Source: a virus (taxonomy: Duplodnaviria > Heunggongvirae > Uroviricota > Caudoviricetes). Taken from it: a stretch of DNA of 9,294 nucleotides. The notes under the pieces are model-generated. The model was not told where the DNA came from. It worked only from the letters and a program-made list of their open reading frames with translations, and did not search any database. The first letter of the stretch is position 1; each line of letters opens with the position of its first letter. Shown here one piece after another: positions 3,468-6,364 of this stretch. The translations under genes and the position numbers were made by a program. The stretch lies in the IMG/VR virus record IMGVR_UViG_2695420698_000011; one strand, 5' to 3'.

Positions 3468-3841
3468 TGCGCCATGAGTTTATTTTACCTTATCCGCCGA
3501 CGGTGAATACTTACTGGCGACGTCGTGACAACACATATTTTGTATCAAAAGCCGGTGAGCGTTATCGCCGGGATGTGGCGCTTATTGTCCGTCAGCAGCG
3601 ACTGAAATTAAGCCTGTCCGGAAGACTGGCGATAAAGATTATTGCAGAGCCACCGGATAAGCGCCGTCGTGACCTGGACAATATCCTGAAAGCACCACTG
3701 GATGCACTGACACATGCGGGAGTGTTAATGGACGATGAGCAGTTTGATGAAATCAATATCGTTCGTGGTCAGCCAGTATCTGGTGGACGTCTGGGGGTGA
3801 AGATTTACCCCATAATGCATGAAGAGCAGGTCAAAAAATGA
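3467..3841 (+). CDS. rusA: RusA-family Holliday junction resolvase, 124 aa
   Basis: Translation has the RusA hallmarks as I recall them (LPYPPTVNTYWRRR..., RRDLDNILKAPLDALT, GVLMDDEQF) and typical size; stop overlaps the Q start at 3838 (ATGA). Confidence 0.85.
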   Translation: MRHEFILPYPPTVNTYWRRRDNTYFVSKAGERYRRDVALIVRQQRLKLSLSGRLAIKIIAEPPDKRRRDLDNILKAPLDALTHAGVLMDDEQFDEINIVRGQPVSGGRLGVKIYPIMHEEQVKK

Positions 3842-4398
3842 AACTGGAAGATTTACCGAAATACTACTCCCCAAAATCCCCTTGCCTGACCGATGCATCG
3901 GCCTCAACGTCAAAAGATGCGCTGAGTATCACTGATGTGATGGCCGCGCAGGGCATGACACAGAATCGGGCTGAGATGGGGTTTTCTGCGTTCCTGGGGA
4001 AAATGGGCATCAGTATGAATGACAGGGCGCGGGCAACAGAATTACTGGCAGATTATGCACTCAGTCGGTGCGATCGTGTGGCGGCGTTGAGAAAACTTCC
4101 GGCAGAAATAAAACCGGTAGTGATGCGCATTATGGCTTCGTACGCTTTTGAGGATTATGCCCGCAGCGCAGCGAGTAAAAAGCAGTGCCCTTGTTGCTAT
4201 GGGGAAAAATTTATTGAAAGCGTAGTTTTTACAAACAAGGTCCAGTATCCGGATGGTAAGCCGCCGGTATGGGCAAAGTGTACGAAAGGTGTGTATCCGT
4301 CTTACTGGGAAGAATGGAAAAAAGTCAGGGAGGTGGTAAAAGTTGCCTGTCCGGAGTGTGGCGGAAAGGGTGAGNTTCCTTGGGAAAATGGGCATTAG
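3838..4398 (+). pseudogene. Q antiterminator copy A: N-terminal 179 codons intact to 4374, then frame runs through an ambiguous base (4375) into a diverged repeat
   Basis: ATG 3838 coupled to rusA stop; translation identical to the 4672..5427 ORF over the shared region up to CPECGGKGE; base 4375 is n and the downstream sequence restarts an internal part of the same gene. Confidence 0.6.
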
Positions 4399-4623
4399 TA
4401 TGAATGACAGAGAGCGGGCAACAGAATTGCTGACAGAATATGCACTCAGTCGGTGTGATCGCGTGGCGGCGTTAAGAAAACTCCCGGCAGAAATAAAACC
4501 GGCAGTGATGCGTATTATGGCTTCGTATGCGTTTGAAGATTATGCCCGTAGCGCGGCGAGCAAAAAACAGTGCCCCTGCTGTCACGGAAAAAAATTTATT
4601 GAAAGCGAGGTTTTTACAAACAA
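4376..4623 (+). repeat. diverged internal Q-gene fragment (copy B), bounded by single n at 4375 and 4624
   Basis: Aligns to 3991-4238 of copy A with scattered substitutions (protein ARATELLADY to ERATELLTEY, CYGEK to CHGKK); looks like an allele from another prophage. Confidence 0.7.
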
Positions 4624-4671
4624 NCCGATGCATCGGCCTCAACGTCAAAAGATGCGCTGAGTATCACTGAT

Positions 4672-5427
4672 GTGATGGCCGCGCAGGGCATGACACAGAA
4701 TCGGGCTGAGATGGGGTTTTCTGCGTTCCTGGGGAAAATGGGCATCAGTATGAATGACAGGGCGCGGGCAACAGAATTACTGGCAGATTATGCACTCAGT
4801 CGGTGCGATCGTGTGGCGGCGTTGAGAAAACTTCCGGCAGAAATAAAACCGGTAGTGATGCGCATTATGGCTTCGTACGCTTTTGAGGATTATGCCCGCA
4901 GCGCAGCGAGTAAAAAGCAGTGCCCTTGTTGCTATGGGGAAAAATTTATTGAAAGCGTAGTTTTTACAAACAAGGTCCAGTATCCGGATGGTAAGCCGCC
5001 GGTATGGGCAAAGTGTACGAAAGGTGTGTATCCGTCTTACTGGGAAGAATGGAAAAAAGTCAGGGAGGTGGTAAAAGTTGCCTGTCCGGAGTGTGGCGGA
5101 AAGGGTGAGGTTTCCACCGCCTGTAAGGATTGCCGTGGGCGTGGTGTCGCCATTCATCGTGAAGAGTCGGTAAAACGTGGTATGCCTGTTATCAGAGACT
5201 GCCAGCGTTGTGGTGGTCGTGGCTATGAAAGACTACCATCAACGGAGGCATTTAATGCTATATGCGAGGTGACAAACCAGATAACACGCGCGTCATGGGA
5301 AAAAACAGTTAAGAAATTCTATGATGCGCTGGTGACTCGGTTTGATATTGAAGAAGCATGGGCTGAGCGGCAGTTAAAAAAGGTAACTAGGTTGATTTTT
5401 CCGGAATCTGTGGTAAATTCGTCATAA
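4672..5427 (+). CDS. Q-like late antiterminator, 251 aa ORF (copy C), with four CxxCxGxG-type zinc-finger repeats
   Basis: Intact ORF to TAA 5425-5427 immediately upstream of a lambda-like PR'/pause element; sequence from 4625 repeats copy A 3888-4374 exactly as far as I can read. The authentic protein probably starts at ATG 3838 (about 283 aa if the duplication is artifactual). Family call rests on position and size. Confidence 0.7.
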   Translation: MMAAQGMTQNRAEMGFSAFLGKMGISMNDRARATELLADYALSRCDRVAALRKLPAEIKPVVMRIMASYAFEDYARSAASKKQCPCCYGEKFIESVVFTNKVQYPDGKPPVWAKCTKGVYPSYWEEWKKVREVVKVACPECGGKGEVSTACKDCRGRGVAIHREESVKRGMPVIRDCQRCGGRGYERLPSTEAFNAICEVTNQITRASWEKTVKKFYDALVTRFDIEEAWAERQLKKVTRLIFPESVVNSS

Positions 5428-5431
5428 CGAT
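5392..5431 (+). promoter_or_regulatory. PR'-like late promoter with sigma70-dependent pause element (-35 TTGATT, extended -10 TGgTAAATT, then AACGATGGG at about +1..+9)
   Basis: TTGATT 5392-5397, 16-nt spacer, TAAATT 5414-5419 preceded by TG, then 6 nt and AACGAT 5426-5431. This matches my recollection of lambda PR' (GGGTAAATT-6nt-AACGATGGG). Confidence 0.65.
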
Positions 5432-5466
5432 GGGCGTTTTATGCCTGACGTTAGAAGAGTTTCTAC

Positions 5467-5490
5467 AACCCGCCGCCGAGCGGGTTTTTT
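5467..5490 (+). terminator. rho-independent terminator (tR'-like): AACCCGC-CGCCGA-GCGGGTT plus TTTTTT
   Basis: GC stem 5469-5473/5480-5484 with a 6-T run 5485-5490, about 40-65 nt downstream of the proposed PR' start. Confidence 0.75.
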
Positions 5491-5610
5491 ATGACTGAAA
5501 TCGCGTCAGTACAGTAAACGCGCTGGTGGCGGTGAATACCTGTCTTTCAGCTTGCTGGCTTTTTCGACAAGAGTTATTGGTGTGTCACGTTAACCGGAAA
5601 AGGAAAAGAC

Positions 5611-5808
5611 ATGCTAAAACAGCAGGATATGACAGAAACCGCCAGAGTGGTGTTTAATGAATTAAGCGTTACCGAACCGGCGACAGTCGGGGAGATAGCG
5701 CAGAATACTTACCTTTCACGCGAACGCTGCCAGTTAATACTGACCCAGCTGGTTATGGCGGGTCTGGCAGACTATCAGTTCGGTTGTTACAGACGCCTTC
5801 CGCAGTGA
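5611..5808 (+). CDS. small winged-helix-like DNA-binding protein, 65 aa
   Basis: ORF track; AAGGA 5600-5604, 6 nt before ATG 5611; segment ATVGEIAQNTYLSRERCQLILTQLVMAGLADY looks like an HTH recognition helix plus wing; stop lies inside a terminator hairpin. Confidence 0.55.
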   Translation: MLKQQDMTETARVVFNELSVTEPATVGEIAQNTYLSRERCQLILTQLVMAGLADYQFGCYRRLPQ

Positions 5809-5820
5809 AGGCTTTTTTAT
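5795..5820 (+). terminator. rho-independent terminator: GCCTTC-CGCAGT-GAAGGC plus TTTTTTATTT
   Basis: Perfect 6-bp GC-rich stem with the stop codon in the loop, followed by a T-run. Confidence 0.7.
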
Positions 5821-5866
5821 TTGTGGTAAATGGGCGGCTGGTGGGTGTTAGGGGCACCCACCAGCC

Positions 5867-6364
5867 NNNNNNNNNNNNNNNNNNNNNNNNNNNNNNNNNN
5901 NNNNNNNNNNNNNNNNNNNNNNNNNNNNNNNNNNNNNNNNNNNNNNNNNNNNNNNNNNNNNNNNNNNNNNNNNNNNNNNNNNNNNNNNNNNNNNNNNNNN
6001 NNNNNNNNNNNNNNNNNNNNNNNNNNNNNNNNNNNNNNNNNNNNNNNNNNNNNNNNNNNNNNNNNNNNNNNNNNNNNNNNNNNNNNNNNNNNNNNNNNNN
6101 NNNNNNNNNNNNNNNNNNNNNNNNNNNNNNNNNNNNNNNNNNNNNNNNNNNNNNNNNNNNNNNNNNNNNNNNNNNNNNNNNNNNNNNNNNNNNNNNNNNN
6201 NNNNNNNNNNNNNNNNNNNNNNNNNNNNNNNNNNNNNNNNNNNNNNNNNNNNNNNNNNNNNNNNNNNNNNNNNNNNNNNNNNNNNNNNNNNNNNNNNNNN
6301 NNNNNNNNNNNNNNNNNNNNNNNNNNNNNNNNNNNNNNNNNNNNNNNNNNNNNNNNNNNNNNNN
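5867..6364. other. 498-nt N run (masked or unsequenced)
   Basis: Literal n characters; hides the 5' part of the methyltransferase gene and anything between the terminator and that gene. Confidence 0.95.

Follow-up and report, generated by a model that had tools for sequence, protein, structure and literature searches.

The window analysed here, a stretch of 9,294 nt from a Caudoviricetes virus record (IMGVR_UViG_2695420698_000011), carries a Q antiterminator gene whose 3' end overlaps a promoter-like region, followed on the same strand by two intrinsic terminators, a small wHTH ORF, a DNA methyltransferase gene and three tRNA genes. Coordinates of all features are given in Table 1.

Table 1. 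Features of the Q locus and the downstream region, in window coordinates; positions relative to the predicted start site carry a sign
Feature	Position	Strand	Remarks
Q codons 1-18	3838-3889	+	split from codons 19-284 by scaffold duplication
Scaffold duplication	3890-4624		between Q codons 18 and 19
Q antiterminator gene, codons 19-284	4625-5427	+	Pfam PF03589, E = 2e-49
8-nt deletion junction	5383-5391	+	one unit of tandem AGGTAACT/AGGTAACA repeat lost; alignment with mEp460 and L017
-35 hexamer TTGATT	5392-5397	+	-34 to -29; aligns with lambda TTGACT
16-nt spacer TTTCCGGAATCTGTGG	5398-5413	+	candidate Q-binding element (QBE)
Extended -10 TG	5411-5412	+	inside the 16-nt spacer
-10 hexamer TAAATT	5414-5419	+	-12 to -7; identical to lambda PR'
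6-nt segment CGTCAT, -10 to start site	5420-5425	+	counterpart of lambda TGACTC
In-frame TAA stop of extended Q ORF	5425-5427	+	overlaps predicted start site
Predicted transcription start	A5426	+	by homology with lambda PR'
Pause element AACGATGGG	5426-5434	+	AACGAT (-10-like, +1 to +6) and GGG; predicted sigma-dependent; identical to lambda
Predicted 5'-terminal RNA hairpin	5426-5452	+	AACG pairs with CGUU, GGGCGU with AUGCCU
Intrinsic terminator AACCCGC-CGCCGA-GCGGGTT and T run	5467-5492	+	stem-loop 5467-5486, T run to about 5492
65-aa wHTH ORF	5611-5808	+	first gene past terminator; weak TrmB match, E = 0.0026
Second intrinsic terminator	5795-5818	+	overlaps stop codon of wHTH ORF
DNA methyltransferase gene	6072-7130	+	start in masked stretch, inferred from 1,059-nt homologues
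Promoter-like site TTGAAG-17-TATTAT	7133-7161	+	ahead of tRNAs; homologous to 933W pT
tRNA genes, anticodons CAT (ileZ-type), TCG, TCT	7171-7420	+	annotated ileZ, argN, argO in relatives

The Q gene and its extended 3' end

Judged by its sequence, the gene upstream of the promoter is a lambda-family Q of the quuQ subtype, which is normally 273 aa long. It could be aligned end to end with lambda Q (31% identity over the full length), from the torus region at the N-terminus to the L..VTR motif at the C-terminus, and it matched the Q-lambda chains of PDB 7UBM with E = 2.8e-40. An apparent pair of tandem Q genes (3838-4398 and 4672-5427) was dismissed as an artefact of scaffolding. Segment 3890-4374 repeats 4625-5109 with 100% identity, and this exact duplication of 485 nt flanks a 248-nt alternative allele with single-N joints. 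The same kind of scaffold joint occurs in L131, and an unbroken 284-aa Q ORF is found in L128-L133 as well as in E. coli TK3889.

In the preliminary description the promoter region was said to start at the Q stop codon. This had to be revised, as the TAG at 5388-5390 does not lie in the Q frame, which runs on through the -35, the spacer and the -10 to the TAA that overlaps the predicted start site. Q reads into its own promoter because an 8-nt deletion removed the usual stop. In the rest of the quuQ class, as far as the Q ORF is assignable, that stop ends 5 nt upstream of the -35 and 39 nt upstream of +1. The deletion adds 11 promoter-encoded codons and thereby extends the protein from 273 to 284 aa. 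Its junction recurs in 6 other IMG/VR contigs and, among 1,247 complete E. coli genomes, in 4, indicating a rare allele, and a metagenome scan for the junction gave 0 matches. An assembly error as the source of the deletion was ruled out by these 6 contigs and 4 finished genomes.

Promoter and pause element in the window and behind other Q genes

The elements TTGATT, 16 nt, TG-TAAATT, 6 nt and AACGATGGG were all recovered where the preliminary description had placed them. The parallel it had drawn to lambda PR' and the AACGAT pause element was borne out by alignment to the lambda region, which matched hexamer for hexamer: lambda PR' has the same -10 TAAATT and the same AACGATGGG, with the same 6-nt gap between them. 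The composite motif TTGAYT-N15-18-TAAATT-N6-AAYGAT occurred once in the window and in 0 of 200 shuffles. Compared with the sigma70 consensus the promoter scored 8/12, and a generic sigma70 scan of the window (threshold 9) did not call a promoter at 5392-5419; the case for the promoter thus rests on its homology to lambda and not on consensus strength. At lambda PR', AACGAT occupies +1 to +6 and induces a sigma70-dependent pause of RNA polymerase at +16, and the GGG resembles a discriminator (PMC4005639). The QBE of lambda lies between the -35 and the -10, the same position as the spacer here (10.1101/2022.03.25.485794).

Further likeness to the lambda Q/PR'/6S RNA/tR' cassette was seen in the homologous Q directly upstream, the TTGAYT -35, a class-specific conserved spacer at the QBE position, and an intrinsic terminator followed by late genes. 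The two cassettes differ in several details. Lambda Q is without the 68-residue CXXCXGXG zinc-finger insertion that is present ahead of the zinc-ribbon arm in the 273-aa Q (284 aa here). The spacer measures 16 nt here and 17 nt in lambda, with a different sequence, and an extended -10 TG replaces the good -35 of lambda. The leader after the GGG is 10 nt shorter than that of lambda, and the terminator ends at about +65 instead of +194. The distance from the Q stop to the -35 is 5 nt in the quuQ class, compared with about 40 nt in lambda, and in the window Q overlaps the promoter. Upstream of its pause element, lambda also has a -35-like TTGACT at the place of CGTCAT here; this element is not conserved at 5420-5425, and the details of Q loading may therefore differ from lambda.

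An unbiased sample of 29 distinct Q loci, chosen by Q peptide motifs alone, was used for the survey of related loci. Exact AACGATGGG was found within 130 nt of the Q stop in 22 of them (expected about 5e-4 per locus), and at these protein-chosen loci it lies 6 nt past a -10-like hexamer. Most of the loci also have a terminator 30-110 nt further on; among 28 diverse relatives, about 25 show a hairpin with a U run no more than about 110 nt past the pause element. The same layout was observed behind Q in Enterobacter, Erwinia, Kosakonia and Edwardsiella and in the K-12 Qin prophage. All 42 lambda-type promoters stand behind a lambda-type Q, whose stop ends 77 nt before +1 in 41 cases, and quuQ-type promoters stand behind a 273-aa Q wherever the Q ORF is assignable. 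Members of the quuQ class hardly differ in the -35, in the spacer or from +10 to +35, none of which the search pattern contained, and they vary at the 3' end of the Q coding sequence. The -35 TTGATT is the same in all 34 distinct sequences of the class; CGTCAT is the most variable part of the cassette. The spacer is kept as TTTCCSGAAnCTGTGG behind Qs sharing 50-58% identity with the quuQ-type query, and other conserved spacers take its place in the Qin and lambda classes. Conservation within each Q class and difference between the quuQ, Qin and lambda classes is what would be predicted for a QBE.

The cassette of the K-12 Qin prophage resembles that of the window in its lambda-family Q (ydfT, quuQ; 250 aa), a -10-like TAAAAT followed after 6 nt by AACGATGGGC, the 27-nt hairpin frame and the terminator. 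It differs in that its Q is only about 44% identical, its spacer, the candidate QBE, reads TTCAAAAAATATGG, and cspF and cspB lie downstream. Overall, between about a quarter and a half of complete E. coli genomes contain a quuQ-type cassette, in many cases within defective prophages such as Qin. Sakai Sp6 carries one as well, with the counterpart of A5426 at NC_002695.2 position 1,554,209. The quuQ promoter type is not defined in a comparison of pR' regions published in 2018 (PMC6266700).

Predicted leader RNA, terminators and downstream genes

If A5426 is +1, the first terminator spans +42 to +67 and the predicted RNA is ~65 nt long. Five of the 7 pairs in the terminator stem are G-C, and folding gave -11.2 kcal/mol with z = -2.6; the same segment doubles as a mosaic joint. 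At the second terminator the stem is invariant among relatives and the loop is variable. The preliminary description had called the first terminator strong and placed it about 40-65 nt downstream, and its position was confirmed. Its strength is less certain. Phage 933W has a hairpin with the same stem (AACCCGC/GCGGGTT) at a similar distance from PR', and in the Stx phages of strain Sakai the 3' end of the PR' RNA was mapped at +258, this RNA of 258 nt being processed to the 74-nt StxS (PMC7547250). Since a hairpin with this stem is read through in 933W-type phages, the terminator at 5467-5492 may terminate only partly and need not be strong.

The 5' end of the predicted RNA folds into a hairpin (-8.6 kcal/mol, z = -2.2). 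Across 25 distinct 27-mers, 92.8% of cells were paired, with one-sided changes only; a covariation test within the 27-nt class accordingly found no double changes, and its shuffle control was uninformative. All 17 of the diverse leaders compared have a closing helix; for a single sequence, a helix of 4-5 bp is expected by chance with P about 0.1-0.4. Conservation of the hairpin, as judged from these alignments, is suggestive only.

The first gene past the terminator has a counterpart in phiP27 that is annotated as a TrmB family regulator, and homologues of the methyltransferase carry the annotation DNA methylase in L002, L124 and L125. The late genes proper lie outside the window; in relatives the same cassette is followed by stx2AB, holin and lysis genes. 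Stx2_EH1910 has the same Q, promoter, terminator, wHTH ORF, methylase and tRNAs, then stx2AB, and E. coli strain 64 has the same cassette and genes, then holin and lysis genes. This synteny agrees with the earlier proposal that the wHTH gene, the methyltransferase, the tRNAs and the cargo belong to one Q-dependent late transcript. The proposal needs to be qualified for the tRNAs, as the promoter-like site ahead of them matches the annotated 933W pT, and a start site for the tRNAs was detected there by dRNA-seq in Sakai (PMC7547250), suggesting that they are probably not purely Q-dependent. The tRNAs probably have a promoter of their own besides the Q-dependent transcript.

The 933W and Sakai Stx phages share with the window the order Q, PR', terminator(s), tRNAs ileZ/argN/argO and cargo at the stx site. 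The annotated pR' of 933W likewise overlaps the 3' end of Q, its tRNA promoter pT is conserved at 95%, and its first hairpin has the same stem. In contrast, the Q of these phages belongs to an unrelated protein family (Q82-family), and the promoter, qut site and leader differ. In the comparison with the 933W PR' region suggested in the preliminary description, promoter and leader were unrelated, the leader sharing only the hairpin stem, and a megablast search returned no 933W match.

A probable lambda-like late switch and its alternatives

Together with the homology of Q, the sequence elements observed, their conservation and their identity to lambda indicate that this locus very probably serves a lambdoid prophage, one with a quuQ-subtype, lambda-family Q, as its late regulatory cassette. 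By analogy with lambda, host sigma70 RNA polymerase would start constitutively at about A5426 from TTGATT / TG-TAAATT, after which sigma region 2 would re-bind the non-template AACGAT(GGG) at +1 to +9 and the polymerase would pause at about +16 to +17. Without Q, transcription would mostly stop at the first hairpin and its U run, yielding the short RNA. When present, Q would bind the spacer as candidate QBE and load onto the paused complex, and the Q-loaded polymerase would pass both terminators. Read-through would then reach the wHTH gene, the methylase, the tRNAs and the cargo and extend past the window into the lysis and structural genes.

It is very improbable that the resemblance to lambda is a coincidence and that the hairpin merely terminates the Q (early right) operon, with no promoter present. 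The weak match of the hexamers to the consensus and the formally coding status of the region in the window would fit such a reading, but the composite motif was absent from all shuffles, the region is non-coding in almost all relatives and more conserved than the adjacent coding sequence, and the same architecture lies behind Q in many genera. A broken switch in this particular copy deserves more weight, though we consider it rather unlikely. Here the promoter would fire, the 284-aa Q would be unable to form an antitermination complex, only terminator leakage or promoters of their own would serve the downstream genes, and the locus would be a decaying remnant. The 11-residue tail comes directly after the invariant VTR of the C-terminal L..VTR motif, whose counterpart in lambda Q, residues 195-207, refolds and contacts the flap-tip helix of RNA polymerase and the Q torus; substitutions of lambda L202 and T206 abolish antitermination. 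By this analogy, Q-dependent read-through may be impaired in the 284-aa copy. The rarity of the allele points the same way, as does a change of the pause element from AACGAT to AACTAT, seen in 5 of the 6 further deletion-bearing contigs. Against decay, a C-terminal extension need not disturb the helix, and the allele is tied to at least 2 different downstream modules and is found as an intact 284-aa ORF in finished genomes, indicating that it has persisted and recombined.

The locus might also be mainly a small-RNA gene, in which a stable ~65-nt RNA acts in trans like StxS or IsrK and antitermination is secondary. We regard this as a possible but doubtful primary role, and the two readings are compatible, as for StxS. 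Regulatory short RNAs running from PR' to a terminator are known, namely StxS (PMC7547250) and IsrK (cited in PMC7547250). IsrK of Gifsy-1 and HnrS of Sakai Sp9/10/12 are likewise short, terminator-ended RNAs of prophage late regions; IsrK has an antitermination-regulated promoter, and HnrS, at 66 nt, comes close to the predicted size. The transcribed +1 to +35 is nearly invariant in the quuQ class, and the RNA folds into three hairpins, the last being the terminator with its U tail (-21.4 kcal/mol, z = -2.1). The retention of the 5' hairpin across the family and the frequency of the module among complete E. coli genomes, many copies being in defective prophages, are also consistent with a role of the RNA itself. 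On the other hand, the pause element alone accounts for the conservation of +1 to +9, and comparison with isrK, StxS and HnrS revealed no homology to a known sRNA. The Rfam isrK model (RF01394) scored 16.2 bits against a gathering threshold of 50, Trp_leader reached a sub-threshold 22 bits against 41 with the terminator part only, and no StxS-like sequence was found in the window, the 933W leader being unrelated except for the hairpin stem. HnrS was examined as a candidate in Sp9, the sole host prophage checked (50 kb including Q and the late region), which has a 176-aa Q, another leader and no AAYGATGGG; HnrS is therefore unlikely to be the RNA predicted here.

Related to this is a more speculative idea, to which we give little credence: that the RNA of the pause element, with AACG(A) at +1 pairing to a (U)CGUU 20-29 nt downstream, forms one half of a functional 5' hairpin kept across the whole Q-lambda family, lambda included. 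Such a hairpin, folding behind the polymerase, could aid pause escape or Q loading, or it could protect the short PR' RNA for regulation in lysogens. If this were true, between roughly one quarter and one half of E. coli genomes would have the 5'-hairpin RNA.

As a late-gene switch, the cassette in the window is an ordinary lambda-like one of a common subtype, and it adds little conceptually to the textbook lambda model. Its 284-aa allele represents a natural Q variant with a C-terminal tail. In lambdoid prophages the Q/PR' switch times the expression of lysis genes and of cargo such as Shiga toxin, and the quuQ-type cassette is used by at least one Stx2a phage.

Promoter, pause element and upstream Q gene

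Alignment to the lambda genome (NC_001416) demonstrated that lambda PR' and the window share a -35 element (TTGAcT and TTGAtT, respectively), GGTAAATT, a gap of 6 nt and AACGATGGG. The parallel with the lambda PR' promoter and its AACGAT element, drawn in the preliminary description, was thus borne out, and the motifs read as they had been described there. The composite promoter/pause pattern had a single occurrence in the window and did not arise in any of 200 shuffles. A generic sigma70 scan did not call the promoter, which matches 8 of 12 consensus positions; the argument for this putative promoter is carried by homology, not by consensus strength.

Features of the late-promoter region in the window, and class patterns used for comparison
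Feature	Sequence	Position	Strand	Remark
-35 hexamer	TTGATT	5392-5397	+	
Spacer, 16 nt	TTTCCGGAATCTGTGG	5398-5413	+	TG at 5411-5412 in extended -10 position
-10 hexamer	TAAATT	5414-5419	+	
6-nt segment	CGTCAT		+	Between -10 and pause element
Pause element	AACGATGGG	5426-5434	+	Same sequence as in lambda PR'
Terminator stem-loop	AACCCGC-CGCCGA-GCGGGTT	5467-5486	+	T run to ~5492
Second terminator		5795-5818	+	Overlaps stop codon of 65-aa wHTH ORF
Promoter-like site	TTGAAG-17-TATTAT	7133-7161		Just before tRNA genes
Lambda class, around start	TTGACTTwTTGAATAAArTTGGGTAAATTTGACyCAACGATGGGTTAATTCG...			
quuQ class, around start	TTGATTTTTCCsGAATCTGTGGTAAATT-N6-AACGATGGGCGTTTTATGCCTGACGTTAGAAG...			Then terminator
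Spacer, quuQ class	TTTCCSGAAnCTGTGG			Includes Qs only 50-58% identical to query
Spacer, Qin class	TTCAAAAAnnnTGG			
Spacer, lambda class	TTGAATAAnATTGGG			

The ORF upstream encodes a lambda-family Q (Pfam PF03589, E = 2e-49) in which a zinc-finger stretch of the DnaJ type, CXXCXGXG, was recognised. In end-to-end alignment, its relatives of 273 aa (phage mEp460, Stx2_EH1910) are 31% identical to lambda Q, which has 207 aa. They also match the Q-lambda chains in PDB 7UBM (E = 2.8e-40): residues 1-113 pair with lambda Q 1-113, and 182-273 with 116-207. By this correspondence, the 273-aa Q has 68 additional residues inserted before the zinc-ribbon arm. A reading of the window as carrying two tandem Q genes was rejected, and region 3838-5427 is regarded as a scaffolding artefact of the assembly. 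Positions 3890-4374 and 4625-5109 are 100% identical, and the single Ns at 4375 and 4624 enclose 248 nt from another Q allele (88% identical), which matches that of Stx2_EH1910. Single-N joints of this kind also occur in the near-identical IMG/VR contig L131, which has ~1.2 kb where the window has 7 Ns (2927-2933). In the compared sequences L128-L133 and in the finished E. coli TK3889 genome, Q is a single uninterrupted ORF of 284 codons.

Late-gene cassettes of this kind comprise a Q gene, PR', a Q-binding element (QBE), a sigma-dependent pause element and a terminator (10.1101/2022.03.25.485794). In lambda, AACGAT spans +1 to +6, serves as a binding site for sigma70 region 2 and precedes a discriminator-like GGG; AACGAT induces a pause at +16, which is required by Q (PMC4005639). 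By analogy, +1 in the window would be A5426, the terminator would span +42 to +67, and the PR' RNA would be ~65 nt. Lambda 6S RNA, in contrast, has a length of 194 nt. Lambda PR' also has a -35-like TTGACT just 5' of the pause element, which is not conserved in the window, the corresponding segment being the most variable part of the cassette. In the proposed mechanism, sigma70 holoenzyme would initiate at ~5426, sigma would re-bind AACGAT-GGG with a pause near +16/+17, spacer-bound Q would load onto the paused complex as in lambda, and the Q-modified polymerase would then pass both terminators. U17-G18 together with G8 of the predicted RNA fits the elemental pause rule, G-10 Y-1 G+1.

Conservation and pairing with Q type

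When viral contigs were scanned with the pattern, the promoters fell cleanly into two classes, lambda and quuQ, the latter named for the Q subtype that normally has 273 aa. Promoter type tracked Q type: lambda-type promoters followed a lambda-type Q in 42 of 42 cases, with the Q stop ending 77 nt before +1 in 41 of them, and each quuQ-type promoter with an assignable Q ORF followed a 273-aa Q whose stop ended exactly 39 nt before +1. Across the quuQ class (34 distinct sequences), the -35, the spacer and +10 to +35, none of which were used in the search pattern, were almost invariant; variation fell in the Q coding 3' end and the 6 nt preceding +1.

As a guard against motif ascertainment, a second sample of loci was picked by Q peptide motifs alone, with one genome per species. 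The genera included Enterobacter, Dryocola, Chimaeribacter, Kalamiella, Erwinia, Edwardsiella, Franconibacter, Atlantibacter, Kosakonia, Buttiauxella and Entomohabitans. Exact AACGATGGG was found ≤130 nt from the Q stop in 22 of 29 distinct loci (two more had one mismatch), sitting 6 nt 3' of a -10-like hexamer, and a hairpin with a U run was present within ~110 nt in ~25 of 28. The K-12 Qin prophage has the same layout. The spacer is class-specific, which matches the prediction for a Q-binding element and makes it a candidate QBE. The quuQ-type cassette is common: among 5,426 complete E. coli genomes, ~2,600 had a match to region 5300-5560 (261 nt) and 1,247 to the 101 nt surrounding the promoter.

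Q extension and the predicted leader RNA

The promoter had been described as starting at the Q stop codon. This did not hold, as the TAG at 5388-5390 is out of frame and the Q frame passes through the -35, spacer and -10 to a TAA at 5425-5427, ending ...KKVTRLIFPESVVNSS. Relatives read ...AAGGTAACTAGGTAACAAGGTTGATT at the Q 3' end and the window reads ...AAGGTAACTAGGTTGATT (5383-5427); one unit of the tandem 8-mer AGGTAACT/AGGTAACA was lost, the TAA stop went with it, and 11 promoter-encoded residues, LIFPESVVNSS, were added to Q. The same junction was observed in six IMG/VR contigs, five of which also carry AACTAT in place of AACGAT and a different downstream module, and in 4 of 1,247 complete E. 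coli genomes, whose annotation gives the gene a length of 855 nt. Accordingly, the deletion is real, rare and old enough for recombination to have occurred. In lambda Q, refolding of residues 195-207 lengthens the C-terminal helix, which touches the flap-tip helix and then the Q torus, and substitutions at L202 and T206 abolish antitermination. The equivalents of this region, L268, T272 and R273, were invariant in four aligned Q proteins, and by analogy the 11 extra residues after R273 could plausibly weaken Q.

The first 27 nt of the predicted RNA (5426-5452) fold as a hairpin (-8.6 kcal/mol), in which AACG, the RNA copy of the pause element, pairs with CGUU and closes GGGCGU/AUGCCU. Across 25 distinct 27-mers, 92.8% of cells were paired; all variation was one-sided (G-C to G-U), with no double changes. 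A helix of 4-9 bp, with a loop of variable length, closes the 5' end onto (U)CGUU at +20 to +29 in 17 of 17 diverse Q-lambda-family leaders, lambda included (L134-L186 and L001), and two variants appear compensatory: AACAA/UUGUU in Pectobacterium and AAUGAUGG/CUGUCAUU in Yokenella. Such a helix is not rare by chance in a single sequence, and the leaders are related; the hairpin is kept only as a lead.

Short RNAs that run from PR' to a terminator form an established class (lambda 6S, StxS, IsrK). The predicted RNA had no Rfam match at threshold, and we found no experimental mapping of a quuQ-type cassette. Identity with StxS was rejected, the 933W leader being unrelated apart from the hairpin stem; HnrS is unlikely, because its host prophage Sp9 has a different Q and lacks the pause motif in the 50 kb fetched. 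Sakai prophage Sp6 does carry a quuQ-type cassette (L203 14170-14275; NC_002695.2 ~1,554,170-1,554,275), with the predicted +1 at 1,554,209.

Terminators, downstream modules and proposed late transcript

A strong terminator had been placed about 40-65 nt downstream, and the stem-loop (-11.2 kcal/mol, z = -2.6) with its T run at 5467-5492 agrees with this. Its strength is less certain: 933W has a same-stem hairpin, AACCCGC-CGATGC-GCGGGTTTTTTT, ~30-50 nt after its own unrelated PR' (L200 1227-1249), yet in Sakai the 3' end of the PR' RNA maps to +258 (PMC7547250), so a hairpin of this type can let polymerase through. Basal expression of the wHTH ORF is possible. The stem AACCCGC/GCGGGTT is common to late-promoter cassettes of unrelated Q families (933W, phiP27, PPyecE; L200, L126, L124, L125). 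Megablast against phages located a recombination joint between Q-PR' modules and downstream modules at this terminator: Q, promoter and terminator to ~5492 are common to mEp460-like phages, and the terminator and everything downstream from 5467 are common to Stx2 phages and phiP27. Those examined among the downstream sharers (PPyecE_EH1910, phiP27, Stx2a_1447) carry other Q types. In the viral-contig set, at least six different sequences were seen immediately following the T run of the same Q-PR'-terminator unit.

The genes beyond the terminator had been assigned to a Q-dependent late transcript. Synteny supports this: in Stx2_EH1910, stx2AB comes after the same series of Q, promoter, terminator, wHTH ORF, methylase and tRNAs, and lysis genes lie downstream of the cassette in E. 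coli strain 64 and Sakai Sp6. The tRNAs are probably also expressed independently of Q, given the pT-like site ahead of them; the stretch around it is 95% identical to a 933W region annotated 'pT; putative tRNA promoter', and Sakai dRNA-seq has a start site driving the tRNAs (PMC7547250).

Between the second terminator and the methylase gene, a conserved non-coding element (5815-5866; masking of the window begins at 5867) is made up of TTTGTGGTAAATGGGCGG, which has TGTGGTAAAT in common with the PR' -10 region, followed by an inverted repeat CTGGTGGGTG...CACCCACCAG; in the Kosakonia prophage L155 it is present after the PR' terminator. Further downstream, the tRNA-Arg(TCT) gene occurs together with its 13 preceding nt as near-exact duplicates (7331-7425 and 8243-8340) flanking an AT-rich stretch (41% G+C), which suggests that recombining argO copies brought about the insertion or exchange of cargo. 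Behind the second copy lies a strong terminator (8348-8365). The 117-aa AT-rich cargo ORF (7531-7884) had no Pfam match; the best matches listed were 99.6-99.9% identical. It is unannotated in the two RefSeq genomes inspected with the region (strains 64 and TK3889), where a 43-aa DUF3927 ORF (7920-8051) is the sole annotated ORF; in strain 64 this is followed by iraM on the opposite strand and then lysis genes.

The preliminary description correctly identified a late promoter, pause element and terminator of the lambda type, and they belong to the quuQ subfamily of Q. The quuQ-type cassette is mechanistically textbook, and its only two mildly unusual points are that Q, in this allele, reads on into its own promoter and that the 5' hairpin is conserved.
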